Assembly (NCBI RefSeq): GCF_964204645.1
Contig: NC_134025.1
Location: forward strand, 18,823,101 to 18,887,100
Source: Tubulanus polymorphus
Taxonomy: Eukaryota; Animalia; Nemertea
Direction of reading: 5' to 3'
Length of the DNA stretch: 64,000 nt
Below, one piece after another: positions 1,409 through 62,282 of the stretch. Both the position numbers and the translations under genes were made by a program. The notes beneath the pieces were generated by a model. It saw only the letters and a program-made list of their open reading frames with translations. It did not search any database and was not told the DNA's origin. The first letter of the stretch is position 1; the number at the start of each line of letters is the position of its first letter.

Positions 1409-1520
1409 TTTCGACCGTGTTCATTACTCATCACTTTTCAAATCATTACTGAAACGAAGAATAGTTTAATTGATTTTTATTTCATATGGAAAACAAGTTA
1501 TGCCGGTTACATGTAACCAG

Positions 1521-1895
1521 AGTAATAGGGATAATAGGCTTTCATACCAAAGGTCGAAAGGTCGAGCTCGTAAAAAAATGAAAATAACAATAATTTACAG
1601 TTGAATTAGTCGCGCACACTCCTAATTCAACTGTAAATTATTATTATTTTCACTTTTTACTCACTCGCCCCTTCAACCTTTGATATGAAAGCCTATTATC
1701 CCTATTACTCTTAAAATATTCATATATATGAATAAAATATAAATGAATAACATATATAAGTAACGAGTAATTAACGAGCTCTTATAGAATAGATATAAAA
1801 GTATATATTTACAACATTATTTCAATATTTATATTTGTGTGAGTTAGATTTTTAAACATTAAAAGTGTTAGTAAAGTGTGATTGAAATAATGCAT
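1521..1895 (+). repeat. Left TIR of E1; 1521-1709 is an imperfect palindrome (hairpin)
   Basis: Reverse complement of 17649-18023, one substitution seen; AGTAATAGGGATAATAGGCTTTCATA (1521) pairs with TATGAAAGCCTATTATCCCTATTACT (ends 1709). Confidence 0.95.
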
Positions 1896-1949
1896 GATAT
1901 AAATCATCGAACTTCTAAAAACAATTTAAAAAAAAAATTTAGTATTAAA

Positions 1950-4900
1950 ATGGAAGCAAATAAGTACTACTGTCCAACATGTAATATCAATATAGATAAA
2001 TCCCAAAAAGCAAGACACAATAAAACTAAAACACATTTAGAGAATAAATTGAAACTAGAATATAACGATGATATATTAGAAACTAAATTAGATGAATTAA
2101 AGAATGAAAAAGAAACATACAAATGTGATACATGTAATCAATCATTCACTGATAAAAGATATTATAATGAACATTTAAAATCTAAAAGTCATATTAGAAA
2201 TATGAATAATGATATTTTAGGTGAAGATTATTTTGATAAAGATAATGATAAGAAACAGAAGACAACTAAAAGCATAAAAAATAAATTAAACAATAAAAGA
2301 CCATACATGGAAGATGTAAGAAAATATATTAATTCATTAGATAATAAAAAAGATATAGAGATAACCGAAGCATTTAAAAGTGATATTGGTCCAGCAGCTA
2401 TCGAGTTTAAATTTCATAAAGGAAAAACATTAGAAGAAAATAAAAAACATTTAGAAAATATGAAAAATATCAATATCAAAAATAATTACTGATGTCCTGT
2501 TACTGATATCCTAAAATAAGTATATCAGTTAAAGTAAAGTTTATAAAATCTGAAGATAAACCAATATATAATATAAATTCTCATTCACAACATATTATAT
2601 CTAAACAACATATAGATGATAAATTAGATAAATGTTATAATGAAGTAAAAACTAAAATAGAAGAGAAATATTTTGAAGGATCTGGTTTAATATTTGATGA
2701 AATAATATTTATGACTTTACATGTTTATAACACAAAATATAATAAGTTAACTAAATCGAAACCAATTGATGAAAATAATGTATCATATTATAAAGAACCA
2801 GATATTGAAGCATCGAGTTATATCAAACTACCATTTAAAACTAATGCTGTAATAAATGTACAAAATGAAGATGATAAATGTTTTCTATGGGCTATAATAA
2901 GTTGTTTACATCCAACAGAAGATATTACACATAGTTTTAGATTAACTCATTATAAACCATTTGAAAATAATTATAAGATAGATAAGTATCCTGTTAGAAT
3001 TAAAAACATCCCAAAAATAGAAAGAGATAATAATTTAAGAATAAATGTATTTGATTTAATCAAATTACCAAATACAAAAGGTAACAATATAAAACATTAT
3101 ACATTAGAACCTTTATATCTATCAAAAGATTATGATTCAAACGATGTTATAGATATATTATATTATGAGAATCATTATATGTGGATTAAACAAATAGATT
3201 TATTCTTTAGAACAGAAAGTGATCACCATAATAAAATATATCTATGTAGAAAATGTTTACATAGATTCAGTAATGAAAGTACATTATTAAATCATAAACA
3301 ATTATGTGAAAATCATGATTATTGTAAATTAGTTTTACCAAATGAAAAAGATAAAATATTAGAATTCAAAAAATGTGATTACAAAAATAAAGTACCATTT
3401 GTTATATATGGAGATTTTGAATCATTAAATAAAGAATTAACTGATCAAGATAGAAAAGAAATATATTATAAAAGAAAGAAATTAAATTCTAATGAAAATG
3501 ATTTTTCAGATGAACCACCAAAAACAAATACTATCAAAAAGATTCATCAATCAGCTGCGGCTTTCGGGTTATATATTAAATCTGATTATCCAGAACTAAT
3601 TGAAAGTGAATATTATGATTATAGAAATGAAAATGTTATCAATCATTTTTGTGACTTATTAATTGAATATGAAATAAGATTTAGTAAATTATTGAATACA
3701 AATATAGAAATTATAATGACAGAAGAAGATAAAGAAGAATTTGAGTTTGCAGATAAATGTTATTATTGTGAAAAGATATTTAATTTTAGAGATAAAAAAG
3801 TAAGAGACCATGATCATTTGAATGGAAAGTTTAGAGGCGCCGCGCATGAGAATTGTAACTTACAAGCTAAGAAAATTAATTTTGTACCAGTTATATTTCA
3901 TAATCTATCAGGATATGATGCACATTTATTCATCAAACAGTTATGCCATAAAATAGAAGAAATCAATAATGAAATAGAAAGATTAAATTCAAATAGATCA
4001 AAAGATAAAATACCAACTTATAAATTTAGAATGTTAGCTAAAACATCTGAGAATTATATATCATTCCAATTTGGTTGCCTAAGATTTATAGATTCATATA
4101 GATTTTTAAATAGTTCATTAGATAACTTATCAAAATCATTAGTTGATGATGAATTAAAAATATTAAAGCAACACTATCCAAATAATGATGATTTTCAATT
4201 AATGAGATATATAGGAGCAATTCCATATTCTTTCTATAAAAATCATAATGATTTTAACATAACTGAATTATTAACAGAACAATTTTATGATGAATTAAAA
4301 AATGAATATGTTAAAGATGAAGTATATAACAGAACATTGAATATTTGGAATCATTTCAAAATAGAAAATCATGGGCAATTAGTAGATTTATATCTAAAAT
4401 CAGATGTATTATTATTAACCGATATATTCGGAAGGTTTAGAGATGTAAACCTAAAATATTTTAATATTGATCCTTGTCATTGTTATTCATCACCAGGTTT
4501 AACATGGGATTGTGGATTAAAATTTACAGATATAAAAATGGATTTCTTAACAAATATAGATCAATTACTATTATTTGAAAAATCTATAAGAGGAGGAGTT
4601 TCAGGTGTATTAGGTGATAGATATTTCAATGTAAATGATAACCCTTGATATAAGTTATTATATATAGATGCAAATAATTTGTATGGTTGGGCAATGATGG
4701 AACCACAACCTTATGGAGTATTTGAATTAACTGAAGTTTTACAGAATGAAAATAATGATAAATTTGATTGGAAGAAAAGAATTCTAGATATTGCAGATGA
4801 TTCAGATTCTGGTTACTTCTTTGTTGTAGATTTAGAATATCCTGAACATATTAAATTTAAATCTAGAAATCTAGCATACTGTCCCGAACATAAAACCGTT

Positions 4901-6001
4901 ACTCATGAAGAATTATCAAATTATCAAAAAAGAATTAAACCCGAAAATCTTATTCATACAGAAAAGTTAATGGTAACTCAAGAAGATAAATATAATTATG
5001 TAGTACATTATAGAATGTTAAAGTTTTATTTGAATCAAGGAATGATTCTAAAAAAAGTACATAGATATATTTCATTCAGCCTATCTAAGTGGTTAGAAAA
5101 ATATATAGATTTTACCACCAAACAGAGAACTGAAGCTAAAACTGATTTCGAAAAAGATTTCTTCAAGTTAATGAATAATGCATTCTATGGTAAGACTTGT
5201 GAAAATATTAGAAATAGAAATGATATTGAGTTAGTTAGTAATGGTAAAAGAATTAGACATTTACAATCATATCCTAAGTTCATTGGTAACAGAATATTTG
5301 ATGAAAATTTAGCTGCAGTTAAGATGAGAAGAACATTTATGAAATTTAATAAACCAATCTATGTTGGCGCATCAGTTTTAGAATTATCAAAATTACTAAT
5401 GTATGAATTCTATTATAATGTATTACAACCACTTTTTGTAGAAAAACATATAGAAATATTATATTTTGATACAGATTCTTACATATTAAAGATAAAAACT
5501 GATAACATAACTAATGATTTAAAAACATTAAAACATCATTTTGATTTCAGTAACTATCCTAAAAATCATGAATTATTTAGCAATGATAATAAAAAAGTTA
5601 CAGGGAAGTTTAAGGATGAATTAGGTGGTGAAGATATGATAGAGTTCATTGGTATTAGATCTAAAATGTATTCATATAAAACTAAAGAACATGAATCTAA
5701 AAAGTTAAATGGAATAACCAAAAATGTAGTAGAAAAGAATATTCATTTCAAAGATTACATCAATTGTATATTCAATGAAGAAGTTAGAAAACATAAGATG
5801 AGATGTTTAAGATCTGAAGATCATGAAATGTTTATTGAAGAAATTGAAAAGATAAGTCTAAACCCATTTGATGATAAAAGATATATTTTAGATGATAGAA
5901 TTCATACAGTTGCTTATGGATGTAATTTAGATGAATACTTAAAATTTAAAAGAGAAGAAACAAAAGGGAACGAGATAATGAAAAGAATTCTAACGTGTTA
6001 A
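1950..6001 (+). pseudogene. polB: Protein-primed-type family B DNA polymerase (N-terminal C2H2 fingers, putative OTU-like protease region, exonuclease with endonuclease VII/HNH-like insert); frameshift near 2470-2510 and stop near 4646
   Basis: Motifs IYGDFES, FHNLSGYDAH, FIDSYRF, YIDANNLYGWAM, KLMNNAFYGK, YFDTDS; colinear with E2 gene, which has GGA where E1 has TGA. Confidence 0.92.
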
Positions 6002-6030
6002 TCAAATTTTAATAAAAATATGTATTATAA

Positions 6031-6384
6031 ATGGAGAGTAAACAAGCAAACAGTGAGAACAACAAATTATTTCTAGATAGAATTAAAGATATCACAAATG
6101 TAAAATCTGTAGATTATAAATTCAAAAAGTTAACAGAATTAACAATTCATAAGAAATATCTAATTACAAATATTGATACAGTTACTAATAACTATGGAGA
6201 TAAATTAGTTATACACTTAGTATGTGAAGGATTAAAAGGAAATACATATAAATTCAGAACATATTTACCGGATAGATTTCATAGATTATCAAGTGAAGAC
6301 TTAGAAGAATTATGTTCTGGAGATTTCTATTTCGTATACAAAGGTAAGAATGAAAAAGGGCATCATGAAATAGATTTCGAATAA
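6031..6384 (+). CDS. Conserved 117-aa protein, possibly ssDNA-binding (uncertain)
   Basis: Intact ORF conserved in E2 (54363); FKKLTEL..YG..LPDRF..VYKG pattern; TAAATG start; function is inference. Confidence 0.6.
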   Translation: MESKQANSENNKLFLDRIKDITNVKSVDYKFKKLTELTIHKKYLITNIDTVTNNYGDKLVIHLVCEGLKGNTYKFRTYLPDRFHRLSSEDLEELCSGDFYFVYKGKNEKGHHEIDFE

Positions 6385-6398
6385 AATATGTAAAATAA

Positions 6399-7146
6399 AT
6401 GGTAGAATTAAAAGAATACAGAATATTTGTTGATTCTAGAATGCTTACAAATTATAAATCTCATAATTTACTAGTACAATTAGATAGAGAATTCAAGAAT
6501 TGTGTTGATTTAAAATTAGTTAATATAAGTTTATGTAATTCTTTTTATAATATATCGGATAAAACTATTGATCATAATGCTTTTATGATTCATATTAGAA
6601 ATGTAAATAAATGGTTTCACCTAATTTTAAAACCAGGATTATATAATTTAGAAACATTAGCTCAAGAAATTAATAGAAGAGCACGGTTGAAAATTAGAAG
6701 TGAAGATAAATCTTTAATTAGATTTTTAAAAAGTGATAGCACAAATAAAATTAAAATAAAGGTATATGATATATGGTATAGTGAGAAAACCTATAACTAA
6801 ACTGTTAGGAATTGTACCAGATACCGTTACAGGAAACGTAGATGGTAATTCAAATATAGTACCTTTTACACACTTTTATATTTATTGCAATTTAATCGAG
6901 CCTACAAAAACTTTCGAAGCAACTAAAGAAACAATTTGTAGTTCTAGTATACTTAATATTTTACCGCTGAAAAATGTTAAACAATTTGGAACTCAAATAA
7001 ATTATAATTTAACTGAATGTGATTTTAAACCTTGCATTCCTAAATTTGATAATTTCAAATTAGAAATAAGAAATCATAATGGACATTTAATTGATTTGAA
7101 TAACTTTCCTGTAATTTATGAATTAGTTATAAGATGTAAAGAGTAA
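6399..7146 (+). pseudogene. Probable minor capsid (penton) protein, frameshifted near 6765
   Basis: Two ORFs (6399-6800, 6766-7146) match the single 253-aa ORF of E2; SFYNI..PGLYN and YIYCNLI..LEIRN..LIDLNN patterns resemble Polinton/PLV pentons. Confidence 0.65.
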
Positions 7147-7162
7147 TTTTTTCACTATATAA

Positions 7163-7519
7163 ATGAATATAACTGTTGGGCCGAGTATATGTTTTGGGTT
7201 TGATTTTAAACGTGAGAAAGAAATGAAATTTAACATTAATGATGTAATTACACATATTAAAAATATTGCATTTTCTAATGAAACAACATTTGAGTATGAA
7301 ACAACAATAGATAAAGAAACTTTAATTGTAGAAAAGATTACTAATTTAATTAGAGAATCTTTAAGATTTCATGAATTAGATGAAGATTTTATTATAGATG
7401 ATATTAAAAAAATAATAATTGAAATATATACAAATGAAACTAGTAATGAAATAAATGTTGAATTAATCATAAATAAGTTAACTAAATATTTTGATGATAG
7501 TAATTTTTTTGATAAATAA
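7163..7519 (+). CDS. Hypothetical 118-aa protein
   Basis: Homolog at 55499; TAAATG start. Confidence 0.7.
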   Translation: MNITVGPSICFGFDFKREKEMKFNINDVITHIKNIAFSNETTFEYETTIDKETLIVEKITNLIRESLRFHELDEDFIIDDIKKIIIEIYTNETSNEINVELIINKLTKYFDDSNFFDK

Positions 7520-7741
7520 ATGAGTGATAATAAGTGGATAATAACTGGATTATATAATGGCGCATTACTATCAGTTGGAACTGTTGGTTATTCAATGGTA
7601 TTAAAAAAAGTATTTAAAATGGGAAGTGTTAATGTTGATAGATTTGATATCAATGATATTTTAAAATTAACATTAGCAGTTACTTTATCTAATTTAACTA
7701 TTGATTATTTAGAAAAACAAAAATATATTCCTCCCATATAA
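7520..7741 (+). CDS. Small hydrophobic 73-aa protein
   Basis: Identical protein at 55841; two hydrophobic stretches; TAAATG start. Confidence 0.75.
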   Translation: MSDNKWIITGLYNGALLSVGTVGYSMVLKKVFKMGSVNVDRFDINDILKLTLAVTLSNLTIDYLEKQKYIPPI

Positions 7742-7765
7742 ATGCATCATTATTTTACTAAATAA

Positions 7766-8188
7766 ATGGCTTCTGCAGTTATAACTATTATAGGATCAGC
7801 AATTGTTAACGCTTTAGCATTTACTGGTGGTGGTTATTTATTTAAGCATATTGATAAAAATGGTTCATTAACAGAACAAAGAAGACATAACTTAGCATTA
7901 GAGAAATATAATAAAGCAGCAGAAGAATATAGAGAAAAGAGGCAAAACTATATGGATTGTATTAACAAAGAATTATATGATCAGAAGATTTCACATAGAG
8001 ATTTTCAATCAGTTGATGATGCAATGAGTTTATATAACGCGGTAACCAATAAAGAAAAATTACATCTATACAAACCTAAATTATCAGATTATTATACCCC
8101 AAGTAATGAACAGAAGAAATATGAAATAATATGGATTTTAGGCGGAACAGTTATTGTTATATTTGTTGCTTATAAGTTTACTAATTAG
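7766..8188 (+). CDS. 140-aa membrane protein (hydrophobic N- and C-termini, central helix)
   Basis: Homolog at 56087; TAAATG start. Confidence 0.75.
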   Translation: MASAVITIIGSAIVNALAFTGGGYLFKHIDKNGSLTEQRRHNLALEKYNKAAEEYREKRQNYMDCINKELYDQKISHRDFQSVDDAMSLYNAVTNKEKLHLYKPKLSDYYTPSNEQKKYEIIWILGGTVIVIFVAYKFTN

Positions 8189-8208
8189 TAATTTTTTTTG
8201 CTAAATAA

Positions 8209-8642
8209 ATGGAAGATAAAGTTGATAATATTGATATTATTCCTCATGATATAAATAAAACTAAATTAAAAATATATTTAGAAAAACAAATATTAGAATT
8301 TGAAAGTGACTTAAAGATAAAAAAGAAAAAATATTCAAAATCTAAAATTATATATAATTTGATTATAAGTGGTTCGGTTACAATTAGTTCTGTAATAACA
8401 TTTCTAGCAATATTCAGTCCATTAACACCTTTAGCTATATCAATTGGTGTATTAGGATTAAGTTCAAGTGTTTTAACTGGTATAAGTTCAAAATTAAATA
8501 TAAAAAGTAATAAAGAAAAAATTAAAACTAATATAAAGAAATTAATAAATTAAAGAATACACTAGATTATATAATAAGTTCAAATGGTCATATAACAGTT
8601 GAAGAACAAGATAAATTATTAAAAGAATTAGTTGATTATTAA
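8209..8642 (+). pseudogene. Two-TM membrane protein, frameshifted near 8538
   Basis: Matches intact 144-aa ORF 56529-56963; 1-bp loss in E1. Confidence 0.7.
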
Positions 8643-8658
8643 TTTTTTAGTTATATAA

Positions 8659-10043
8659 ATGGCAGATAGTTTTCCAAAAGCTTTCCAATATAATAAATCA
8701 ATTAAATATAATATTCCAGCAATAGATTTTAATAAAGATATTACATATAGAAATGAAGTTTTAAATTCATTAATTGATTGATATATTTATGTTACTGAAA
8801 GTAATAATTTTCATGTTAAGATGGAAAATATATTTCATGTGTATACAATTAATTTCAAAAATTTAAATGAGGCAAAACAATGGTTATTAAAATCTAATAT
8901 GAAGTATTGGCAGAACCAATTAAATTTTGCTGTTTATTGTGCAACAACAGGATGTGGAATTAGTTGGAATGATCATTTAAACAAACCAAGTTTACCATTG
9001 ATGTTATCACTTTTTAGATTTCATACATATTTTCAAATAAAATTAATATTAGATGAATTAGAATGTCCTTTACCAGGTTCAAAATATTTTAAAGAATTGA
9101 ATAATAATATTAATTTTTCTAAGTTTTATAAAATATGTAATGAATTTAATATTAATTCAAATAAAGATTTTACAGCAAAAATTGGAACAATGGGTGGATT
9201 AGTAATATTATATACTAAAGAATTTGGAAAAATAATGACAAATTCAGATATAAGAACACTAAATTGGAATGAATTACCAAAATATTATAATAATATACAA
9301 CAACAAAACACTAATGGTTGGGTTAATTTCATTTTAGAAAATAGTGAAGGTTTTGCTAAAGCTGGAATACAAAGAATAAATCACTCTATTAGAACTTATT
9401 TGATATGTATTTTAGGTGCGCAAGTTGAAACAAGATCCCCAATAATTGGAAATGATAACACTTCATTCGATGCGCAGAAACAATTCAAAGTATTATTTGA
9501 AGATTCCATTCATAATGATAAAAATAGATCTATTCCAGAAAACATTGTAAGATATCAAAATTATTTAGATGAATCACATATTAGATTAAATTATTGTATA
9601 GGCCCTAATCTATTTATTATTTCTAATGCTTTAGTATTAAAGATGGGAAACATGATTGGTTACAATAATCTAATTAAACTGCAACAATAAATAATTCATT
9701 TGGATTAAATGATATAAATAGAAAGATTATCACTGCTCCAAAATTAATGGAAGGTGAAAAAAATAAAAAACACATTCAATCAACAGAAACTAAAACTAAG
9801 AATATTAAATTAAATAATGATTCTAAAATAAAAGATTACAATACATCAATGCACTCGACAGAAAAAAAAGAAGAACCAATTCCTAATATTGATTTAAACA
9901 AATATTCACCATTTAAAAATCCAAATTTAAATCCTAATGATGTTGATCCAGAAACCGATGAAGACTTTGCAAATCGATTAGATAAATTAAGATCTTCAAC
10001 ACCCGAAACATCGAGAAGAGACACTCTTAGTGAATATGATTAA
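8659..10043 (+). pseudogene. Conserved protein of unknown function (YWQNQLNFAVYCATTGCG), disrupted and joined to a different 3' end after ~9848
   Basis: Matches 464-aa ORF 56981-58375; early stop near 8778, frameshift near 9677. Confidence 0.75.
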
Positions 10044-10073
10044 AAATAAATAATTATTTTTTTTGTTAAATAA

Positions 10074-11321
10074 ATGAGTGGGAGTTATATCAATCCTTCT
10101 AAGAATCATAGAATATCTAATGCTATTAAAGCAGAAAGATCACATCATATAATTACTCATAATCCTTCAAATATTAATCCCGATGAAACTTTATATGTTA
10201 GAATCCCTAGATTAACACAAAATACTTTTTACGTTCCAAATAGTATTTATTTATCAGCCGATATAAAAGTAACCCGTAATAATAATAATTATGTTGTTGA
10301 TAATGTTGGAAGATATTTGATTAAAAAATTAACTATAAAGATTGGTCCAGAAACAGTTTTCTCATTAGATGATTATAATTTATTTATGCATTATAAAGAT
10401 TTATGGTTAACTAAAGAAAATAGAAATAATATGATATTCCAAGGCATCCAATCAGAAAACCAAAATAAATTAAGATCAGAAGCTAATAGCGCAATATTAA
10501 CTAATGCTGTAGATAAATTGATAAAAAGTATATATGGAAGCAAATATAAAATTCCATTAGACTTTGAATTGATAAATGACAACGCACCTTTACATAAATA
10601 CGCAATTCAAGAAGACGTTATATTCGAAATAACATTTGCTCCTGTAAATGAAATTGTAATATCTAGCGTTAATAAAGATATGCGTTATAAATTATCGAAT
10701 ATATGTTTAGAATATGATACAGTAACTGATGAAAATATTTCAAGTATAATTCAAACTAAATACAATCAAGGATTTTCATTATTATATGATTATATTGATA
10801 AATTTAAAACTGTAACTATTAATGCAAATGATGAAATAATTGATGAGAATATTAACTTCCCAAGAAGATCTATTAAAGGTATATTAATATTTTTTACCAT
10901 TGCAACATATACTAATGGCGCAATAAATGTTGATAATTATTATAATCCTGAAATAACAAAAGTAGAAATAACTATCGAAGGAATAGCAAATAAGATATTT
11001 TGTCAAGGAATGAGAATGATTGATCAATGGCCAGAAATTAGAAAACATTTTATGAATGAAAAAGTGAAATCATCTGAAAATTGTAACATTAATCAAATTG
11101 ATTATTATACCGGTAACAAATATGCATTATGGTTAGATTTTAGAACAAGAGAGGATAATTCATTACATGGTTCTGGAAAAAAACTACAGAACACTAAAGA
11201 TGGAATACAATTATTCATGACAAAGAATAAAGGAATCAAAAATTTCAAAATGCACATTTATATTATATCTGACGCGCAATTGAATATTGTAAATTCACAA
11301 TTAGATAGTGTTATGTATTAA
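10074..11321 (+). CDS. Probable major capsid protein (double jelly-roll), 415 aa, intact
   Basis: Size, beta-rich pattern (NPSNI..LYVRIP, YKIPLDFEL, FEITFAP, LSNICLEYD), strong conservation with 59967-61214, context; fold is inferred. Confidence 0.75.
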   Translation: MSGSYINPSKNHRISNAIKAERSHHIITHNPSNINPDETLYVRIPRLTQNTFYVPNSIYLSADIKVTRNNNNYVVDNVGRYLIKKLTIKIGPETVFSLDDYNLFMHYKDLWLTKENRNNMIFQGIQSENQNKLRSEANSAILTNAVDKLIKSIYGSKYKIPLDFELINDNAPLHKYAIQEDVIFEITFAPVNEIVISSVNKDMRYKLSNICLEYDTVTDENISSIIQTKYNQGFSLLYDYIDKFKTVTINANDEIIDENINFPRRSIKGILIFFTIATYTNGAINVDNYYNPEITKVEITIEGIANKIFCQGMRMIDQWPEIRKHFMNEKVKSSENCNINQIDYYTGNKYALWLDFRTREDNSLHGSGKKLQNTKDGIQLFMTKNKGIKNFKMHIYIISDAQLNIVNSQLDSVMY

Positions 11322-11353
11322 AATTTTAACTCTAATAAAAATTTATTATATAA

Positions 11354-12301
11354 ATGGAAGGAGGTAAAGTATATAAACATATTCCATACATCGATACACA
11401 TGAAAATAATGATGGTTTATATTATGTAATACCTTGTAATATAGCTTTGATATTTGATCCTATTTTCAAAATTTATAAAACTAAACTAATAGAAATCGAT
11501 AATAATAAAAGTGGTGTTGTTGATAATTTAAGTAATGTAATTGATAATAATGTAATATCTTCTACATCTAATAATGTAATACCTACTACATCTAATAATG
11601 TAATACCTACTACATCTAATAATGTAATACCTTCTACATCTAATAATGTAATACCTTCTACATCTAATAATGTAATACCTTCTACATCTAATAATGAAAT
11701 ATTATTAAATGTTAGTGAAAATAGAAATTATTGTGATTATTGTAAAGGCGAATTTTCAAACGCTCCATCAAATTGGAATAATCATATGAATACAAATTCA
11801 CATATTACTAATGTTATAAAACGTGTTGGTTTAAAAGAATTTATAGAACACCCATTTAGATATGTTACAAAGTTTGTTTCAAATCAAAAAGTAAATGGTG
11901 AAAAAATATATGAAGATTTATTATTAGCAACACCTAATAAAGATGAATTAGATCTAACCAATGCTAATGAAATATTAGGATCAAACACTGTAAATGAAAT
12001 ATTAGGAGCAAACACTAATAAAGATAATAATGAAAATACAGGAAAGCGCATTGATAATAAAGATTCTATGAAACTTAAATCAGAAAATAAAGATATAGTT
12101 GAGATGACTAATAAGTATATCAATAAACCAATTATTTATGAAGATACGGTTAAAAGGGTGAAGAATAAGTACAAAAATAATAAAGAATTTGAAGAAGAAA
12201 ATTCGGTAGAGAATTTGAATAGATTGTTAGGGTCTGATGATGAATTGGAGAGTGATTCAGAAAGTGATTCAGAAAGTGATCATCTAACACTCAAACAGTA
12301 A
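11354..12301 (+). CDS. Variable zinc-finger protein with 6x NNVIP(S/T)TS repeat and acidic tail
   Basis: CDYC..HMNTNSH finger; open 315-aa ORF; TAAATG start. Confidence 0.7.
   Translation: MEGGKVYKHIPYIDTHENNDGLYYVIPCNIALIFDPIFKIYKTKLIEIDNNKSGVVDNLSNVIDNNVISSTSNNVIPTTSNNVIPTTSNNVIPSTSNNVIPSTSNNVIPSTSNNEILLNVSENRNYCDYCKGEFSNAPSNWNNHMNTNSHITNVIKRVGLKEFIEHPFRYVTKFVSNQKVNGEKIYEDLLLATPNKDELDLTNANEILGSNTVNEILGANTNKDNNENTGKRIDNKDSMKLKSENKDIVEMTNKYINKPIIYEDTVKRVKNKYKNNKEFEEENSVENLNRLLGSDDELESDSESDSESDHLTLKQ
11545..11688 (+). repeat. In-frame 24-bp tandem repeat x6
   Basis: TAATAATGTAATACCT(T/A)CTACATC units. Confidence 0.95.
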
Positions 12302-12304
12302 TAA

Positions 12305-12655
12305 AGGTTGAAAATTGTATAAAATAATAGTAAATAAAAAAGGGGGTTTTAAGTATTAAGGTATCTAATACATATCTAATACGTATCTAATACGTATCTA
12401 ATACGTATTTAATACATATTATTTGAAAATACCTTAAATTATATTTCTTTTTCAAATTTATATTGAAACCTCAGTAATAATGAATAATCTTTATTATTTT
12501 CAAACTTATTCATATATTAGTTGAAAAAAATAAAAATAAATTGGTTGAAAATTGTATGAATAATATTTATTTTAAAAAAGGGGGTTTTAAGTACTAATGT
12601 ATTTAATACGTATTAAATACGTATTAAATACGTATTAGATACATAGGTATACAAA
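12305..12655. repeat. Structured intergenic region between convergent gene arms of E1
   Basis: Two direct copies of GGTTGAAAATTGTAT..AAAAAAGGGGGTTTTAAGTA, each followed by 11-bp quasi-palindromic GTAT(C/T)(T/A)AATAC units. Confidence 0.85.
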
Positions 12656-12658
12656 TAG

Positions 12659-13270
12659 TTATTTTATAAATTTATATTCATATGGAAATTGTAATCTCAG
12701 TAATAATTTTGAACCTTTATTATTCTTTAATTTATTCATATATTCATCATGTAATTCAGTAGGTATAATTTGATTTTCTTCTAATGATTGTTGCATAGAT
12801 TTGTTATCTTTGTTATAAGATAAAACTAGAAATCTTATATTCTCCCTAAAGTCTTTAACAATTGAATTATATTTTTGTTTTAAAACCCATGTTGTTATCC
12901 CAAAATGTCTTCCAGAGAAAGCTAAATAACATAACTCACTTTCTCTAACTTTTGAATCATGTAAATTTGCGCAATCATCTATAATGAATAATGTAATTGA
13001 TCCTTTATAAGTATCAATTGCTATTTTAATACAATTATCTAAATTTTCTTTTACTGTTTTAGGATTTAATATAATAAACTTTTTTATCCTAACTATATCT
13101 CTATTATATGTTTTATTCATTTCATAAGTAGGACAAAATAATATTATGTTATCAAAATGATTCTTATAAATAGTTTCTAACAAATCTAATATGAAATTTG
13201 TTTGACCACAATTGGTTACTCCAGTTATTAACATATTATGCGGTTCGAATATGAATAAATCTTTATTCAT
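12659..13270 (-). CDS. A32/FtsK-like packaging ATPase; Walker A lysine replaced by Q
   Basis: ITGVTNCGQT (E2 has GKT), Walker B FIIDD, SGRHFGIT arginine motif. Confidence 0.85.
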   Translation of the reverse strand: MNKDLFIFEPHNMLITGVTNCGQTNFILDLLETIYKNHFDNIILFCPTYEMNKTYNRDIVRIKKFIILNPKTVKENLDNCIKIAIDTYKGSITLFIIDDCANLHDSKVRESELCYLAFSGRHFGITTWVLKQKYNSIVKDFRENIRFLVLSYNKDNKSMQQSLEENQIIPTELHDEYMNKLKNNKGSKLLLRLQFPYEYKFIK

Positions 13271-14381
13271 TTATTCTTTTAATTTTACTAGATAAAATCC
13301 ATTCATTAAACTTATCATCATATCCTTTATATTTCACCAAAGAATACTTTTTTCCTTTAAGAGTTTTTGTTTTCAATACTTTTTCTATTTTGTATTCTAT
13401 TTCATCTGGATTTGGTACAAGTGATAATTCTTGTTCATAGAAATAACCTAATATTTCTTCATCTTTTAGATCTTCTAGTTTATAAACAAATGGTTTAGTT
13501 AATATTATCTTTTTAATCTTAAATATTTCTTCTGTAAAATTAGGGGTATAACCTTTATAAAATGTTTTTCTACATTTAGATATTCTGACGTGTTGTCCAA
13601 TTTTGAATCTAGGTTCACCGAAATCATGTGTAACAAATGCTCCATATAAATTATTCCAAACAATTTCCGAATTATCTTCTTTTCTAGCTTGTATAGGTTT
13701 CATATTTATAGAACTATGTTTAGAATTATTATAACCTTTCACTAAATCATCTAATACATCGATATATTTATATGTTTCATTAGCAGTAAAATATTTCCAC
13801 ATTCTAGTTTTCAATGTTTTATTAAATCTTTCTATAATAGATGCTTTTTTATCTGAATGTGTTGAAAAATAATCTACATCGTTATCAGATAATAGTTTTT
13901 TAAAATGTTTGTTATAGAATTCCTTACCTTCATCAAATTGTATCTTATCTGGAATAGCTTCTTTAAATATTGATTTAAAAGCATTTGTTACTTCTATTCC
14001 AGTTTTATTTTTGATTGGAATTGACCATGCGTATGGACTGAATATGTCTATAACATTTAATATCCAGAAATATCCTTTGTTGTATTCCTCTAAGTTCTTC
14101 ATGTCAATTAAATCTGCTTGCCATTGTTGATCGATATATGAAACCATAACTTTTCTTGTTAAATAAGTTTTATCCATTTTCTTGTGTATTTGATATGTTG
14201 GTTGATTTTGTAACCATGATTTTAATTCACTATATTTTATACCACCATGTGGGTGCCGTACGGCACCATCACCATTTTGATTATCAGATTTAATTTTATT
14301 CCATAATTCTGAAACGTTAGAATATGATACTTCACTTTCTGGGTTATAATATAAATCTCTTAAATATTGTTCTTTTTTCAT
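13263..14381 (-). CDS. int: Retroviral-like DDE integrase with C-terminal chromodomain
   Basis: WQADLIDM, VIDIFS, QFDEGKEF, IERFNKTLK; YKIEKVLK..LVKYKGYDDKFNEWI. Confidence 0.93.
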   Translation of the reverse strand: MKKEQYLRDLYYNPESEVSYSNVSELWNKIKSDNQNGDGAVRHPHGGIKYSELKSWLQNQPTYQIHKKMDKTYLTRKVMVSYIDQQWQADLIDMKNLEEYNKGYFWILNVIDIFSPYAWSIPIKNKTGIEVTNAFKSIFKEAIPDKIQFDEGKEFYNKHFKKLLSDNDVDYFSTHSDKKASIIERFNKTLKTRMWKYFTANETYKYIDVLDDLVKGYNNSKHSSINMKPIQARKEDNSEIVWNNLYGAFVTHDFGEPRFKIGQHVRISKCRKTFYKGYTPNFTEEIFKIKKIILTKPFVYKLEDLKDEEILGYFYEQELSLVPNPDEIEYKIEKVLKTKTLKGKKYSLVKYKGYDDKFNEWILSSKIKRINE

Positions 14382-14388
14382 CTTATTT

Positions 14389-14745
14389 TAATCCATTAAT
14401 AATAATTTAGATTTAGTTTCAATGGCTTTATGATTTGACTTATTTTCTTGTATAATAGGTTTATTGTCATTGGAATCATCTTTATCATTAGATTTGAATT
14501 TTGATTTATACATTACACCGGATAATATAATAACTGTTACTAATCCAATTGTAATATATAATTTATAATTACTTCCAGCATTAGAAGAATCAGATGGATT
14601 ATTATTTGAATCAATATCAGGTGATTCATTTATATCAGTTAATTTCTTTTTCTTAGCTTTTTTTAATTCTGAAGATCTTTTACCTAATTCTCTTGCCCAT
14701 TTAATTTGTTACTCGGATCTAGCCTTTTTCTTAACGCTATCATTC
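14389..14745 (-). pseudogene. Small basic single-TM protein, internal stop
   Basis: Manual reading gives WARELGKRSSELKKAKKKK..LYITIGLVTVIILSGVMY; homolog in relic near 39535-39890. Confidence 0.5.
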
Positions 14746-15345
14746 ACTTTTAGTTAATTTTTGTTCTGATTCATTTTCTGTTCCACCGTTTGGTTGTAGT
14801 ACAGCGTCATCTGTTTCGTTCTTACCTGATTTATATTCCATAGGTTTGATATTCGAAAATGTTATGACACCAGTAGAAATTAATGTCATAACCGATCCTA
14901 ATTGGAATGAAGCATATCCAACCCATTTTTGTAATTCAGTCATAACTAAATAGTCATTTTTCAAATCACTATATCATTTATTTTCATCATCAATTGGTAT
15001 TAACTGGTAACATAACTTAGAGTAACATTTGACAATACCATCTGAAATAGAATCATTTATTCTAGCTAATCTTGCCTCTTCATAAATCTTAAAATATTTT
15101 ATTACTTTATCTGGTTTCATAGCATCTAATTCTTGGAAAGTAATGATTCTATTTAAAAACTCCTTAGTTTTTCCACCGGCAATCAATAGTTCTAGATGAT
15201 GCTTACAATATAAATAGTATTCATAATCTATATTTCAATTAACTTGAGCACAATTAGTTACAACTGTATCTTTATTATCACTTATACCCAAATCATCTAA
15301 TGTTTTTTCAATATCAATACTATTCTTATTAGATTTCTTTGACAT
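14740..15345 (-). pseudogene. Conserved ~200-aa protein with hydrophobic C-terminal part, disrupted
   Basis: ORFs 14974-15186 and 14740-14964 are continuous in relic ORF 39131-39541; TAAATG start at 15345. Confidence 0.65.
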
Positions 15346-15673
15346 TTATATTAGAGAAAAAAAGCAAAAAAATATTATAAGTATTCTTCAAATGATACTA
15401 GCTAGTTAAAACTAAAGAATTCTAGTATTGACTACTGATACTAGCTATTTGAATTTAAAGAATTTCTATTTGAATCTATTCAAAATATAAAGTATTCTTT
15501 TTTGAAAAGAAAATATTAAAAATATAATAGAATTCACTAGCTAGTTGAAGTTATTGTTTTTTTATTATATTTTATTTAAATTCTATTTGATATCACCATG
15601 TGGGTGCCGTACGGCACCATCTCACTACTATTGTCTATCTATTAGGAGCAGTAATTATAACTGTCCAGATAAG

Positions 15674-16354
15674 TCATTTCGGATCCTTGATATCAAATTC
15701 CTCAACGTATTGTTCATTATTTGGATCATTGTTCCATTGATCAATAAATTTCTTTGCCTTTGTTAACTGTTCTAAATATAACTGTAAATCTAGTTTATTA
15801 GATTTGATTTGATTTTCTTTCTTTTCTAAAGGCCTTAAATTTTTCCAACCCCAAATAAGTTTTTTATTGTATTCATCATTCATGTTAAATTTAGATATTG
15901 GTAACACGTGATCAATATGGTAATAATCCCCATAATTATCTATATTCATTTTATCATCGAATTTAAATATAATCCATGATTTGAGAAATTCATCTGAACA
16001 ACCGAATAGATTAGATAGTGTTTCTGAATGTGTTTCTTTGTTGAATAATTGTGTTAATCTAGATCTTAAGCATAGTTTCAATCTAAAATTAAGATCTGTT
16101 TGATATCTTTCTCTCATATATTCTGTCATATAATCATTATAAGCTTCTCTATTATCTTCTCGATATTGTTTGGTATATAGTTTAAAACAAGTTTTACAAC
16201 AATATTGAAAACCATCTTTGCTAATCTTACGCTTACTAAATTCTGTTAAAGCTAATTTATCTAATTCACATTTAGAACACTTCTTGTAGTATATATTTAT
16301 AACACCAGCAGTGTTATTTGTAATATTGATAATTTGCGGTTGTTCTGGTTCCAT
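15674..16354 (-). CDS. HNH endonuclease with N-terminal Cys4 zinc finger
   Basis: CSKC..FSKRKISKDGFQYCCKTC; NYGDYYHIDHVLPIS..NLRPL..ENQIKSNK. Confidence 0.8.
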   Translation of the reverse strand: MEPEQPQIINITNNTAGVINIYYKKCSKCELDKLALTEFSKRKISKDGFQYCCKTCFKLYTKQYREDNREAYNDYMTEYMRERYQTDLNFRLKLCLRSRLTQLFNKETHSETLSNLFGCSDEFLKSWIIFKFDDKMNIDNYGDYYHIDHVLPISKFNMNDEYNKKLIWGWKNLRPLEKKENQIKSNKLDLQLYLEQLTKAKKFIDQWNNDPNNEQYVEEFDIKDPK

Positions 16355-16489
16355 TTATTATATGTATTTTTTTACTAAATTGGTTAATATTTTAGAATCC
16401 TCTTCCATTTCTTCGACCAACGTCATCCTTTTTCATTCCTCGCTGCTTTTGATAAGTTGTTTCGATTCCTTGATATCTGAATAATACCA

Positions 16490-16950
16490 CTGGGCAAAAG
16501 CGCGCATTCATGCGCGCTTTTGCTTAATGCGCATGCGTTAATCATAATTATATATTCATTATGTAAATTCTGTAAAATAGAAACAACCGAACACAGAAAA
16601 TATCAAAACGTGTTCGCATTAGGCAAAACCGCGCATTCATGCGCGGTTTTGCTCAATGCGCATGCGTTAATCATAATTATATATTCATTATGTAAATTCT
16701 GTAAAATAGAAACAACCGACATGAAATATCTAAACGTGTTCGCATTAGGCAAACCGCGCATTCATGCGCGGTTTTGTTCAATGTACATGCGTTAATCATA
16801 ATTATATATTCATTATGTAAATAGAAACAACCGACATGAAATATCTAAATCATACCACTGAGCAAAACCGCGCATTCGTGCGCGGTTTTGCTCAATGCGC
16901 ATGCGCTAATCCTAATTATATATTCATTCTGAATAGAAACGACCGAACAT
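16490..16950. repeat. Four ~113-129 bp tandem units, each with a ~30-bp GC-rich palindrome
   Basis: GCAAAACCGCGCATTCATGCGCGGTTTTGC-type cores at 16494, 16623, 16749, 16862. Confidence 0.92.
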
Positions 16951-17648
16951 AAAAATTCGCCAACCAGATTTACACAATACATTATACAAGTTGTTCGGCT
17001 TTTTCTTCCAATACAATTTATAATTACAAACATTTTTTCAATTGCTGGTAAATATTTAACTACATCAACAAATGTTAAACTTAATCATTGGAGTCTTAAT
17101 GTTTTTGAAATTCTTATATAGTTTCTTCGTCGATCTTTTGGCGATTCTTGTGTTTCTTGTGCTAATTTCTATTGGTTCGATATCCATTGCTGTTGATTCC
17201 TCAGTCAGAAAGAGTATCTTGAGTTTCTCTATCTCTTCTTGATGCGTATGGCGTTTTATTAATCTAAAAGATATTAGCGGCAACTCTAGCCATCTAAAAG
17301 ATATACTAAATACACTTAAATATATCTAAAGGTTTCATATTTAATAGCCCTAATAACTACAAAAAACAGTACTTACATTTAGATTTAGAATTGTAAACTA
17401 TAAACTCCTAATTTCGTTTCGAGAGATAGAATATCCTGAGCGTAATGTTACAGCGCCTGTTCATTTCCTGCCACGTCATCTGGTTCCGGTTCTAGAGTGT
17501 TCTACACGTTTGCAATATTATGACTCATATGTTTCGGCGTCATAGTAACAGCTGTAACAGCTGTGAATTTATAGATTTATTCAATAGTTCATTACATGAA
17601 ATGTATATAGGCTCAAATAGAATCATGTTCTAGTATAAATAAACAGCT

Positions 17649-18023
17649 ATGCATTATTTCAATCACACTTTACTAACACTTTTAATGTTTAAAAATCTAA
17701 CTCACACAAATATAAATATTGAAATAATGTTGTAAATATATACTTTTATATCTATTCTATAAGAGCTCGTTAATTACTCGTTACTTATATATGTTATTCA
17801 TTTATATTTTATTCATATATATGAATATTTTAAGAGTAATAGGGATAATAGGCTTTCATATCAAAGGTTGAAGGGGCGAGTGAGTAAAAAATGAAAATAA
17901 TAATAATTTACAGTTGAATTAGGAGTGTGCGCGACTAATTCAACTGTAAATTATTGTTATTTTCATTTTTTTACGAGCTCGACCTTTCGACCTTTGGTAT
18001 GAAAGCCTATTATCCCTATTACT
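17649..18023 (-). repeat. Right TIR of E1; hairpin at 17835-18023
   Basis: Reverse complement of 1521-1895, followed by TSD AACCAG. Confidence 0.95.
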
Positions 18024-39034: not shown

Positions 39035-40099
39035 CATTGTAACTCAACGAAATGGAGTAGGCCCTAGCATTCCTTGATACTCCCCGGTTTGAACCTAATT
39101 ATTTCCTGACCAGACACGTGGAAAAAGAAAATGATGAGAACCCAGCAATCAATTTTTCGAATTCTGCCGAATGATGATGAATTAGATAACATGAAACCAG
39201 ATAAAGTAATAAAACATTTCAAAATATATGAAGAAGCTAGATTAGCTAGGATAAATGACTCTATTAGTGATGGAATAGTTAAATGTTACTCTAAGTTATG
39301 TTACCGAGTAATACCAATTGATGATGAAAATAAATTATATAGTGATTTAAAAAATGACTATTTAGTTATGACAGAATTACAGAAATGGGTTGGATACGCT
39401 TCATTCCAATTAGGTGGAATAATGACATTAATTTCTACTGGCGTAATAACATTTTCTAACATTAAACCTATAGAATACAAAGATAAAAATAAATCAGAAG
39501 ATATTGAATCCGAACAAAAATTAACTAAAATAAATGAGTGATGATTTTAAGAAGAAGCCTAGATCCGAAAAAAAATTAAATGGGCAGGGAATTAGGTAAG
39601 ATCTTCTGAGTTAAAAAAAGCTAAGAAAAAGAAATTAACTGATATAAATGAACCACAGAAATTATCTGTTATTAATTCGAATGATAATCCATCTAATGCT
39701 TCTAATGCTGGAAGTAATAATAAATTATATATTACAATTGGATTAGTAACAGTTATTATATTCTCCGGTGTAATGTATAAATATAAGTATAAATCTGATG
39801 ATAATGATGGTTATAAACCTATTATACCAGAAAATAAGTCAAATGATAAAATCATTGAAACTAAATCTAAATTATTATTAATGGATTCAAATAAGATGAA
39901 AAAAGAACAATATTTAAGAGATTTATATTATAACCCAGAGAGTGAAGTATCATATTCTAGTGTTTCAGAATTATGGGATAAAATTAATTCTGATAAAGAA
40001 AATATAAAATATAGTGAATTAAGATTATGGTTACAAAACCAACCCACATATCAAATCCACAAGAAAATGGATAAAAATTATCTAACAAGAAAAGTTAAT

Positions 40100-41016
40100 C
40101 AATCAATGGTAGATCACAATATCCGTGATACAACGATACGAGTAAAATCCCACAATAAAAGAATTAGATGAGAAAATGTTTATTAAAACATATAAGAAAT
40201 ATTTCGGGTGGTTACTACCACCCTTCTTCAGTCTAAAATGACTTGCCAAATACAGTATTAATACATGAAATATGAAATAGGACACGAATCGCTGCACATT
40301 ACGTTATGGGGACTAGAGCACTGACATAACTTGAAAGAAGTTTATTACGGGGGCTGAAACCATTATTGAGGTTGACAGAACGATCGGAATGAGTAGTAAT
40401 CAAAGCAGATTCAACTATATGTCGTTTAGTGCGACTACTGTTGGGAAAGATAATATTGGCTCCAGAAAAATCAAAATTGTGTCCGGTAACCAAAGAATTG
40501 GAGACTACCCCACTTTCTAATTTAACCCCATTAAATACATCTCGTTTATGTTCTTTGATACGATCCTTAATATTCCTACCGGTTTCCCCAATGTAAAAAA
40601 GGTTACAATCAGAACAGTTGATTTTATAAACTCCACAATGGACATTAGGGTTCAGATTGTTATTGGAGCAAAAATTAGAAATTTTGTTATTATACTTGAA
40701 AATTAAATCAGTATTCAAATGCTCTTCGTCATTTGAATACTGATTTAATTGTAACCTTTTTTACATTGGGGAAACCGGTAGGAATATTAAGGATCGTATC
40801 AAAGAACATAAACGAGATGTATTTAATGGGGTTAAATCTGCTTTGATTACTACTCATTCCGATCGTTCTGTCAACCTCAATAATGGTTTCAGCCCCCATA
40901 ATAAACTTCTTTCAAGTTATGTCAGTGCTCTAGTCCCCATAACGTAATGTGCAGCGATTCGTGTCCTATTTCATATTTCATGTATTAATACTGTATTTGG
41001 CAAGTCATTTTAGACT
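40100..41016 (-). mobile_element. Penelope-like retroelement fragment (GIY-YIG endonuclease) with inverted partial copy, inserted in relic integrase
   Basis: GVYKINCSDCNLFYIGETGR..RIKEH; ~40230-40600 inverted at ~40750-41016; 13-bp TSD AAGAAAAGTTAAT at 40087 and 41017. Confidence 0.85.
40190..40240 (-). ncRNA. Putative minimal type I hammerhead ribozyme
   Basis: Minus strand CUGAAGA-AGGGUGG-UAGUAA-CCACCC-GAAA-UAUU; stem I imperfect; expected in Penelope repeats. Confidence 0.55.
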
Positions 41017-43749
41017 AAGAAAAGTTAATGTTTCATATATTGACCAACAGTGGCAAGTGGATTTGATGGACATGAAGAACTTAGAAGAATACAACAAAGG
41101 ATATTTCTGGATATTAAATGTTATAGATATATTCAGTAGATACGCATGGTCAATTCCAATCAAAAGTAAAACTGGTATAGAAGTTACCAATGCTTTTAAA
41201 TCAATATTTAAAGAAGCTATTCCAGGTAAGATACAATTTGATGAAGGTAAGGAATTTTATAATAAACATTTAAAAAAATTATTATCTGATAACGATGTAG
41301 AATATTTTTCAACGCATTCAGATAAAAATCTATTATAGAAAGATTTAATAAAACATTGAAAACCAGAATGTGGAAATATTCTACTGCCAATGAAACATAT
41401 AAATATATCGATGTGTTAGATGATTTAGTGAAAGGTTATGATAATTCTAAACATAGTTCTATAAATATGGAACCTGTACGAGCTACAAAAGAAGATAATT
41501 CAGAAATAGTTTGGAATAATTTATATGGTGCGTTTGTTACACATGATTTTGGAGAACCAAAACTCAAAATTGGGCAACACGTTAGAGTATCTAAATATAG
41601 AAAAACATTTTATATAGGTCATACTCCAAATTTTACTGAAGCAATATTTAAAATTAAAAAAATAATATTAACTAAACCATTTGTTTATAAATTAGTAGAT
41701 TTAAAAGATGAAGATATATTAGGTTATTTCTATGAACAAGAATTATCGCTTGCACCAAATCCAGATAATATAGAATACAAAATAGAAAAAGTATTAAAAA
41801 CAAAAACTCTTAAAGGAAAAAAGTATTCTTTGGTGAAATATAAGGGTATGATGATAAATTTAATGAATGGATTTTATCTAGTAAAATTAAAAGAATAAAA
41901 AATGTCCCCTTCCTCGGGGCACGCAGTTGTACGACACGTGCTGGTAAAGTGGTGCTTGTAAAATTTATGCACGGACATAATCCGGCAACTAAAGTTGATG
42001 TGTCTGTTCAATCGATGGATCAGTTAATGGAGAAAGGTAGGCCTAAGTTTATTTGATTTATTAAAAACTAAATTTGAGTAGGTCTAGCGTAACTCGATCC
42101 GTCGATCATCCAGTTAAAAAAAATCTTACTAACTGGGTCTTGTGTTGAAATGATTGATAACTCATAACTGAATCAGTTTAAATCTTCATATTTTTCAGTG
42201 ACGACAAAGTTCCAATATACAACGGAACGATTTGTTTTAACTGATGGCTGTGTAATAGATGATGATGAAGCTCTAGCCGAACTCGAAAAAATGTCGACCA
42301 TAGTAGCTGTGTATCCCGGGATGGATCCACCCACGGGTAAGTAATCAGTTTGTTGAAAAAGCCCCTAGCAGAATATCAAATAATCTATGATTTCCTGTCT
42401 CTGGAACAATTGCTACATTCTAAAGTACCGTTAGCACAACAGAGACCTAGACCTCTTTGCTTGTCAATATGTAGGCCCTAAATCAATGGTGTCATATAGG
42501 AATTATCTCTTTTTATTTGTAGGTCATTTGAGTGGCCCGATACCTGTAGATCATGTGAGCTGCCCCATTCCTGTATCTTCGCAATCAACTGTGGGTTCAG
42601 TAAAATTAGATATCGAAGCCAAGTTAACTGAAATGAGGAAAAGACGACTGGCGGTAGGCCCATTGTTACTCTAAATAAGCTGAAGTGAGAACTATGTCAA
42701 TATGCTCATGCCATCCTCAATTGTTTTGAATAATAGTATTATAACAATCATTACTTCAAAGCATCCAGTAGTATTCTCGTGTATTTTATAGAAATTTTCT
42801 GAGTTGGTATCAACAAAAAAGAAGAAAGTTACATTGAAAGTGAAAGTTGGGTGGAAGAAGTATGATCAGGTCGAACGGAAATATAAACAAGTTTGAAGTT
42901 ACAATGGTGGAGGCAGTCGAGTTCTCGAACAGGACAGAAAGACTGATTACATGACTTTTATTATTTATTATGCCATTTAACAACATTGTTTCAACGAACG
43001 GATGAAAACATGCATTTAGAATTACACGGTGTAGATGGGAAATCGTTACCCTAAGATTATGTTTTGGAGACGTACATTAAAGAAAGCCATTTATGTGGAG
43101 AAATTTTTTTTTTACCGTGTAGTGGCTATCAGAGAAAGTTCTCTCTTGAAGTTTAATGGGTCTTATTGTTGTAATTTATCGCTTTTCTATCAACCCTAGT
43201 AACTGATTCTATTGTTGTAAGTTATGGATAAAAGTGGTTGATTTTGCTAATTGGAGATGTTACACAGCTATTTATGTAAGTACAAATTTGTCAATAGCTG
43301 AGAAGGTTTTAATATTTAATTTGTTCTAGTATTCAATTGCTAATTTTCAATGAATATATTGCAGTTGAATTTAGGTGACAGTAAATTAATTCAAATTTCC
43401 AGGTCAAATGTTCTCTTTATGGCCAGTTTTTGTTAAATATTTCCAAAACGGTTGATTCTAGACCCCAAGTGTTGCATGCCGTTTTAATCAGAATAAAAAT
43501 GTGTTTAATGTAAGCTATTGAGTAAGGTTCTAACTAAACAATTTTGTTTTTCGAAATTTTTAATCCCATCGAAAACTTGGTAAAAAAAAACTGAAATCTG
43601 AGGAAAACCCCAATCAATAGCTGAAATGAAAGAAATTCCTTTACATTGTATTCTGTATGTTGACTGATGGATCATTGCCTCTTTCACCCATGTTGACACA
43701 CTGGGAAACCATTGGTATCGGTCAACTCAGATCGAACACGGTCTATAAT

Positions 43750-50222: not shown

Positions 50223-50304
50223 CTTAAAATATTCATATATATATGAATAACATTTAAATCATTGAACTTCTAAAATCAATTTTAATAAAAAATTTAGTAT
50301 TAAA

Positions 50305-54334: not shown

Positions 54335-54362
54335 TCAATTTCAATAAAAATTTGTATAATAA

Positions 54363-62278: not shown

Positions 62279-62282
62279 AAAG

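Follow-up and report, generated by a model that had tools for sequence, protein, structure and literature searches.

A clade-specific, late-type promoter motif on the genes of a capsid-encoding Polinton in the nemertean Tubulanus polymorphus

Introduction

Small integrating viruses that share a promoter with a giant helper virus are known from protists, in the pairs mavirus and CroV, Sputnik and mimivirus, and PgVV Gezel-14T and PgV (PMC6723459, bioRxiv 2022.07.28.501842), and mavirus places one promoter class before nearly all of its genes, those for replication included (PMC6723459). Here we analyze a 64,000-nt stretch of the Tubulanus polymorphus genome (NC_134025.1; hereafter the window, within which all coordinates count) that contains E1, a Polinton in which most genes begin with TAAATG at a fixed distance from an upstream A/T core. 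Like mavirus, E1 has a DNA polymerase B that is protein-primed (pPolB), along with an rve integrase, and it shares with mavirus, Sputnik and PgVV a capsid and ATPase of its own, the lack of an RNA polymerase, one short promoter class and chromosomal integration. It differs from them in its animal host, in a capsid that resembles that of Polinton-3_NV (P3_NV) of Nematostella, in having no detected protease, and in a TAAATG-type motif rather than the CroV TCTA or mimivirus motifs; its helper dependence is putative.

Another related group is the entomopoxvirus-associated Polinton-like viruses, which have been proposed as poxvirus hyperparasites in animals; they differ in that all encode a cysteine protease, and the association was drawn from occlusion-body co-purification (PMC11296320). 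In that study, two members of this group fall beside PgVV and the P3_NV/N1A_NV clade (PMC11296320), and the P3_NV major capsid protein groups with that of the helper-dependent PgVV (PMC4028283; PMC11296320). The main text of PMC11296320 contains no match for “promoter”, “motif” or “TAAAT”. P3_NV also has an animal host. Judged by eye, the motifs that the E1 capsid shares with the Polinton-3_NV row in supplement 4 of PMC4028283 are collinear over the whole protein; the accessible portion of that paper describes neither a promoter nor helper dependence for it. The yeast plasmids pGKL1/2 have a pPolB-type polymerase and a TAAAN initiator that yields 5’ poly(A) leaders by slippage, but they carry a pox-derived RNA polymerase and a capping enzyme of their own, lack a capsid and stay unintegrated (PMC6211774). 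In the literature searched, which left out subscription journals and bioRxiv supplements, TAAATG promoters had not been reported from animal Polintons. To our knowledge, virions of animal Polintons have not been seen, and the literature that we consulted contains no analysis of their promoters.

Results

TAAATG precedes nearly all genes of E1

The first-pass annotation of the window had described TAAATG overlapping the start codons of most genes in E1 and its copy E2, with TAAAATG at PolB and TAAGATG at the integrase. These observations held: all 12 E1 and 11 E2 coordinates it listed have TAA directly before the ATG, and both variants are present. TAA precedes the ATG at 12 of 15 E1 starts; the count had been 12 of 14 until the minus-strand start at 14743, which reads TGAATG in E1 and TAAATG in the partial copy E3, was added. 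Of the 14 starts defined by homology, 12 have TAA, as against 25 of the 363 remaining ATGs on the sense strand (Fisher p 1e-11). The annotation had proposed AT-matched ATGs as a comparison, and two such backgrounds gave only 5/98 and 9/181. Because an in-frame stop can push an open reading frame (ORF) caller to the next ATG, we also counted the first ATG after a stop in non-gene frames, where 40 of 469 carried TAA.

The hexamer is part of a longer motif, [AT]5-T(-12)-N8-TAAATG, numbered from the ATG, which fits all 12 TAAATG starts of E1 but only 4 of 42 non-start TAAATG sites (p 5e-9). The full motif occurs 30 times in the window, with 5.7 expected from shuffles, and the TAAAATG of pPolB shares its register. 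Around two promoters, the organism’s copies, as represented in reads, vary at -14, -9, -8, -6 and outside the motif; the variants listed, 40 rows of 52, include no change within TAAATG and no change at -12.

A 77% AT content could in principle generate such a pattern by chance, and TAAATG does occur at about 7% of the ATGs that the element contains. The enrichment nevertheless reached p 1e-11 or lower against four backgrounds, and chance was refuted by these E1 backgrounds, by homology-defined counts and by the comparison of GC-richer with AT-rich loci given below; we regard this explanation as having next to no probability.

The motif is confined to one capsid clade

We compared 83 related capsid loci, with duplicates removed and starts set by homology rather than by the motif. 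Relationships came from a quick capsid tree of 61 of 85 capsids, the 24 loci without an ORF of at least 330 aa being left out. In the clade around E1, TAA directly preceded ATG at 46 of 53 starts in 17 loci, and the full [AT]5-T-N8 core was present at 41 of 52. The motif clade comprised 16 rows of the tree (SH-aLRT 99), 15 of them with the motif. Outside it, TAAATG was found at 6/6 starts of a single locus, L035, which this quick tree puts on a long branch within the sister group; the rest of the sister group had none at 20 starts and the outer relatives none at 224. The motif is thus confined to one capsid clade plus one outlier.

Base composition does not account for this distribution, because GC-richer clade members (36-44% GC) retain TAAATG at 25 of 29 starts, with T at -12 in 23 of those 25, whereas AT-rich starts outside the clade have it at 0 of 36 (A occupies -3 in 32). 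We judge the clade-specific, late-type promoter on this animal Polinton, whose capsid resembles that of P3_NV, to be real.

Other parts of the family have upstream motifs of their own. A recurring TCTAAAACGT-like motif lies upstream of the capsid gene in six outer-clade loci (L016, L032, L036, L037, L055 and L077), and a recurring TTCAATAC-like motif in seven others (L018, L022, L026, L029, L031, L033 and L071). From their sequences, these outer-clade motifs suggest that clade-specific promoters may occur across the family.

The motif behaves as a promoter rather than an RNA-level signal

We considered whether the motif might act in RNA, on long transcripts of RNA polymerase II (Pol II), as an upstream poly(A) signal, a stop-restart coupling or a splice acceptor. 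In favor of this, 19 of the 46 clade starts are overlapped by AATAAA, and T-runs are common after the upstream stop; against it, AATAAA overlaps none of the six L035 starts. The TAA closes an upstream ORF of at least 30 aa at only 4 of 52 clade starts, which bears out the first-pass statement that most of these TAA triplets are not the stop of the preceding gene. The splice-acceptor version was rejected, as AG occurs within -18 to -4 at only 6 of 52 starts. The motif also stands before first genes and points in both directions between head-to-head genes. Such pairs, with TAAATG at both ends of the gap, are separated by 28 nt in L010, 28 nt in L035 and 19 nt in L001, and in the L035 pair one central AAATTT serves both genes at -17 to -12. 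Because head-to-head genes share two-way versions of only 19-28 nt, the motif behaves as a promoter and not as a stop-restart or poly(A) signal, and an RNA-level role is, in our estimation, quite improbable. Each gene would then have some 20 bp of two-way promoter and almost no 5’ untranslated region.

Which polymerase reads the promoter

Neither RNA polymerase nor TBP, TFIIB or VLTF had a Pfam match among the 22 + 21 proteins scanned, in agreement with the first-pass claim that the element has no RNA polymerase; one sub-threshold Rpb1 match (E 0.086, 12.6 bits against a cut-off of 39.7) fell on an HNH protein of locus L007. Because the same motif precedes nearly every gene and no RNA polymerase is recognizable, the element probably owes its activation to a large DNA virus that infects the same cell, as do the virophages of protists. 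We favor, at a probability of roughly 0.58, an integrated Polinton whose 20-bp late-type promoter is read by the machinery of a co-infecting member of the Nucleocytoviricota, pox-like but probably not a chordopoxvirus.

Three features argue for this reading. A purine at -3 is the usual context for translation initiation. T occupies -3 at 47 of 53 clade starts, whereas outer relatives have a purine there at 176 of 224. Second, clade coding DNA has AATAAA nearly as often as synonymous shuffles of 11 loci predict (177 against 182.8; observed/expected (O/E) 0.97), similar to chordopoxviruses (144/139.6, 1.03), an entomopox-like contig (58/57.7, 1.00) and a giant virus (28/27.0, 1.04), whereas AT-rich relatives lacking the motif avoid it (47/62.5, O/E 0.75, z -2.8, 16 loci). 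Third, the layout is that of poxvirus late promoters: an A/T core, a short spacer and TAAAT over the start codon (PMC5294985, PMC11980589). Together, T at -3, unavoided AATAAA and the poxvirus-late layout point away from ordinary Pol II; the first two would fit a polymerase other than Pol II. In poxviruses and yeast pGKL, transcription starts inside TAAA with slippage that produces a 5’ A leader, which removes the T at -3 (PMC6211774).

Two further signals were set aside. The poxvirus early terminator T5NT is depleted in clade coding DNA (O/E 0.40), but we did not use it as evidence because the depletion extends to every long run of A or T (A7 0.36, T6 0.26; T5VT 0.45 against T5VV 0.71). RNA polymerase III terminates at T4 runs and was rejected, clade coding DNA containing 400 of them. 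In the one sequencing run presumed to be RNA, the stretch drew two records, neither of them within the element, which is no evidence either way.

The first-pass annotation had ascribed transcription to a pox-like or other Nucleocytoviricota machinery, and the comparison with poxviruses upholds the architecture but not the exact spacing. A motif scan of IMG/VR returned 119 stretches, 13 of them chordopoxvirus loci, from which we compared 36 distinct promoters of about seven orthologous genes, leaving out the anchor gene. Poxvirus late and intermediate promoters share with the clade the A/T core, short spacer, TAAAT over the start, A-run/T-run variants and two-way use (PMC5294985, PMC11980589, PMC12917281). 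The element differs in its stronger A at -4 and -6, and its motif is on 80-90% of element-clade genes against about half in poxvirus stretches. A 93.6-kb IMG/VR metagenome contig (L152/L205) carries an 18%-GC entomopox-like stretch with D13, VLTF3, E10, H1 and H2 families and a reverse-transcriptase ORF among its genes. A search for further invertebrate poxviruses with an entomopox-like scaffold protein returned only the query itself.

Several observations weigh against a Nucleocytoviricota helper. The published poxvirus rule puts the conserved T at the tenth base upstream of TAAAT, that is, at -13 from the ATG (PMC11980589), and chordopoxviruses had T at -13 in 75% and at -12 in 42%, whereas the element has T at -12 in 93% and at -13 in 72%, 1 nt closer to the ATG. 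TAAATG also occurs without a fixed T at -12, in an entomopox-like contig (11 of 21 ORFs) and in a giant virus that is not a poxvirus (7 of 24). Given the departure from chordopoxvirus spacing and the presence of TAAATG in that giant virus, the helper could be something other than a poxvirus; none of the viruses sampled is an exact fit, so that any helper would lie outside this sample. For the element itself, neither a transcript nor a start site nor a helper virus has been observed, and coral polintovirus genes, of a clade not known, are expressed in ordinary coral RNA data (PMC11131425). Within E1, the pPolB and integrase starts deviate from the motif, and no function has been assigned to several conserved proteins (the 464-aa, ~210-aa and zinc-finger proteins). 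The AATAAA signal is modest in size and comes from loci that share ancestry and so are not independent. Finally, AT-rich relatives have A/T runs and TATA or TAAA a few bases before the ATG; compact promoters may therefore predate the clade and be family-wide and element-driven.

This last point leads to an autonomous nuclear virus, in which an element-encoded factor, such as the zinc-finger or ~210-aa protein, recruits host Pol II and TAAATG is a lineage-specific initiator. Such a factor could be among the conserved ORFs of no assigned function; other relatives bear short upstream motifs of their own, the spacing departs from that of chordopoxviruses, and TSV is a nuclear lytic Aquintovirus (bioRxiv 2026.06.19.733378). 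The lack of TBP, TFIIB and VLTF matches tells against it, as does the choice of candidates: the ~210-aa protein had no PDB sequence match below E 0.05, and the zinc-finger gene was seen in only five loci, L035 and L003 not among them. Pol II would also have to accommodate T at -3 and AATAAA that is not avoided. We consider an autonomous, Pol II-transcribed element the main rival reading, though clearly less probable than the one we favor.

A helper might also be required without being a member of the Nucleocytoviricota that brings its own polymerase: a nudi- or baculo-like virus, a giant virus lacking RNA polymerase that reprograms Pol II, or a trans-acting element. A prasinovirus-like locus has TAA before the ATG at 3 of 17 ORFs, and the E1 integrase start contains ATAAG, the baculovirus late motif. 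TAAG, however, occurs at that one start only, which reads TAAATG in L001, and the architecture and AATAAA neutrality match cytoplasmic viruses; helpers of these kinds seem unlikely. The Nucleocytoviricota-type helper that we favor is in line with the first-pass description of E1 as a virophage-like parasite. Clade-wide conservation, the fixed T at -12, two-way promoters, T at -3, the AATAAA counts and a capsid lineage near PgVV all support that description and the reading of the motif as a promoter, while helper dependence itself stays putative.

E1 is a polymorphic insertion with additional copies

E1 is flanked by terminal inverted repeats (TIRs) and a target-site duplication (TSD; Table 1). 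Because it has TIRs and a 6-bp TSD, and because an empty-site allele is present in three public read runs of the same organism, E1 is a true, polymorphic insertion. The element is wider than the first-pass extent of 6000-16375. Read depth over E1 in public runs is about 10 times that of the left flank. E1, E2 and E3 are all ~23% GC, in host DNA of 30-50% GC. Several genes are disrupted in each copy; E1 is thus a full-length yet defective Polinton.

Table 1. Features of the window, with promoter motifs named by the gene that they precede
Feature	Coordinates	Strand	Remarks
E1, full-length capsid-encoding Polinton, several genes broken	1521..18023		16.5 kb, ~23% GC; TIRs, TSD, empty-site allele
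Target-site duplication, 6 bp	1515..1520	+	repeated at 18024-18029
Left TIR, 375 nt	1521..1895	+	first 189 nt imperfect palindrome, z -17.6
Right TIR	17649..18023	-	
Protein-primed PolB, N-terminal zinc fingers and EndoVII domain, three ORFs	1950..6001	+	start TAAAATG, motif register kept
Motif, 117-aa gene (6031-6384)	6014..6033	+	
Motif, minor-capsid-like gene (6399-7146)	6382..6401	+	gene split in E1
Motif, 118-aa gene	7146..7165	+	
Motif, 73-aa membrane gene	7503..7522	+	TAA doubles as previous gene’s stop
Motif, 140-aa gene	7749..7768	+	
Motif, SLATT-like 2TM gene	8192..8211	+	gene broken in E1
Motif, conserved 464-aa-type gene with C-terminal membrane anchor	8642..8661	+	gene broken in E1
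Motif, major capsid gene	10057..10076	+	
Major capsid gene	10074..11321	+	E2-copy model, VP54 match, P3_NV collinearity by eye
Motif, 315-aa U1-type zinc-finger gene	11337..11356	+	
A32-like packaging ATPase	12659..13270	-	PF04665 E 2e-11; promoter motif 13268-13287 inside integrase gene’s end
rve integrase with chromodomain	13263..14381	-	start TAAGATG in E1, TAAATG in L001
Broken ~130-177-aa gene	14388..14743	-	start TGAATG in E1, TAAATG in partial copy at 39534
Motif, conserved ~210-aa helical gene	15343..15362	-	gene broken in E1
Motif, HNH/EndoVII nuclease (15674-16354)	16352..16371	-	first gene on its strand
E3, partial third copy	39131..41898	+	integrase interrupted by insertion with own inverted repeats
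E2, ~91-95% identical copy, cut by window end	50017..64000	+	TAAATG at 11 listed starts, full motif at 9

The elements and their surroundings contain several other repeats. An imperfect palindrome of ~190 nt opens each terminal repeat (1521-1709, 17835-18023 and 50017-50222); it puts an inverted copy of the terminus within the TIR, a feature relevant to how the element replicates. E1 contains two occurrences of a short, GC-rich palindromic segment (14241-14270 and 15595-15622); the first is inserted in frame in the integrase gene and is skipped by reads from other copies. The gene-free region near the right TIR (16473-16954) is taken up by tandem repeats of ~130 nt with GC-rich palindromes, and the insertion that disrupts the E3 integrase (40230-41016) carries nested inverted repeats. 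Between E1 and E2 lie a host Gypsy retrotransposon with LTR-like repeats (19820-24921), whose named relatives are metazoan except for one with a bacterial-MAG label, a degraded, unassigned transposon-like gene (44185-46826) and an array of palindromic ~200-nt repeats (46963-48819).

Gene content and classification

E1 encodes pPolB, an rve-chromo integrase, an A32 ATPase, an HNH nuclease, a double jelly-roll capsid and a probable penton; about nine remaining genes are small or belong to no assigned family. PolB was recognized on the E2 ORF (PF03175, E 7e-16), to which the E1 copy is 90-93% identical. The integrase matched PF00665 at E 1e-7 (32.5 bits, just under the cut-off of 32.6) and also has a chromodomain. 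The capsid model, built on the E2 copy (pLDDT 91.5), is a double jelly-roll matching PBCV-1 VP54 (E 2e-17), and the fold search ranked PBCV-1 and iridovirus capsids above that of mavirus. The penton candidate is weak, with a DUF5901 match at E 0.002 in addition to its position and size. The largest ORF of no assigned function encodes the 464-aa protein; its model (pLDDT 74) had no fold match, the best Foldseek hit being E 0.69 and the best Z 4.5, on the terminal helix.

These genes, with the TIRs and TSD, give E1 the features of Polintons/Mavericks in the broad sense: pPolB, rve integrase, double jelly-roll capsid, a (weak) penton and A32 ATPase. No adenain-like or other protease family was found at E<=0.1 in any scanned E1 or E2 ORF, so the adenain-like protease of group 1/2 Maverick-Polintons and adintoviruses is missing here. 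It is missing from E1 although both TIRs bound the element, and since one other gene has been lost, protease loss may be the cause. The capsid and protease types of Virophaviricetes are likewise absent from E1 and E2, and the element is not a member of the virophage class. Its capsid and ATPase had no relatives in IMG/VR.

Two observations concern the wider clade. One member, L003, has a deoxynucleoside kinase gene under the same promoter (10340-10981), and P0143 also has PF01712. The P0046 cluster contains capsids 54% identical to that of E2 filed under several Bartonella assemblies; these are probably contamination from host arthropods, hinting that the clade reaches terrestrial arthropods.

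Discussion

If the element is read by a co-infecting Nucleocytoviricota machinery, every gene would be transcribed as a separate unit. Transcripts would begin on the A’s of TAAAT, and polymerase slippage would add a poly(A) leader in place of the unfavorable T at -3. In the chromosome the element would remain inactive until late factors arrived from a helper; its own pPolB would then copy it, and its own capsid and ATPase would package it, in the manner of mavirus with CroV.

A broader proposal, which we hold tentatively and as possible rather than probable, is that the whole P3_NV-type clade in invertebrates consists of endogenous virophages of an undescribed pox-like virus of aquatic invertebrates. 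The promoter, TAAATG with T at -12, would then be a fingerprint of that virus’s late promoter, and the copies a mavirus-style, infection-triggered antiviral reserve.

Our findings bear on how animal Polintons are transcribed and on whether any of them are helper-dependent. Were Pol II the polymerase after all, E1 would instead encode some means of directing Pol II to initiate two bases before the ATG. Under the helper-dependent reading that we prefer, the motif offers a search image for the large DNA virus that would serve as helper. A clade-specific, position-exact promoter is a sequence-level argument for a virophage life in one animal lineage, and would carry provirophage biology from protists to animals.

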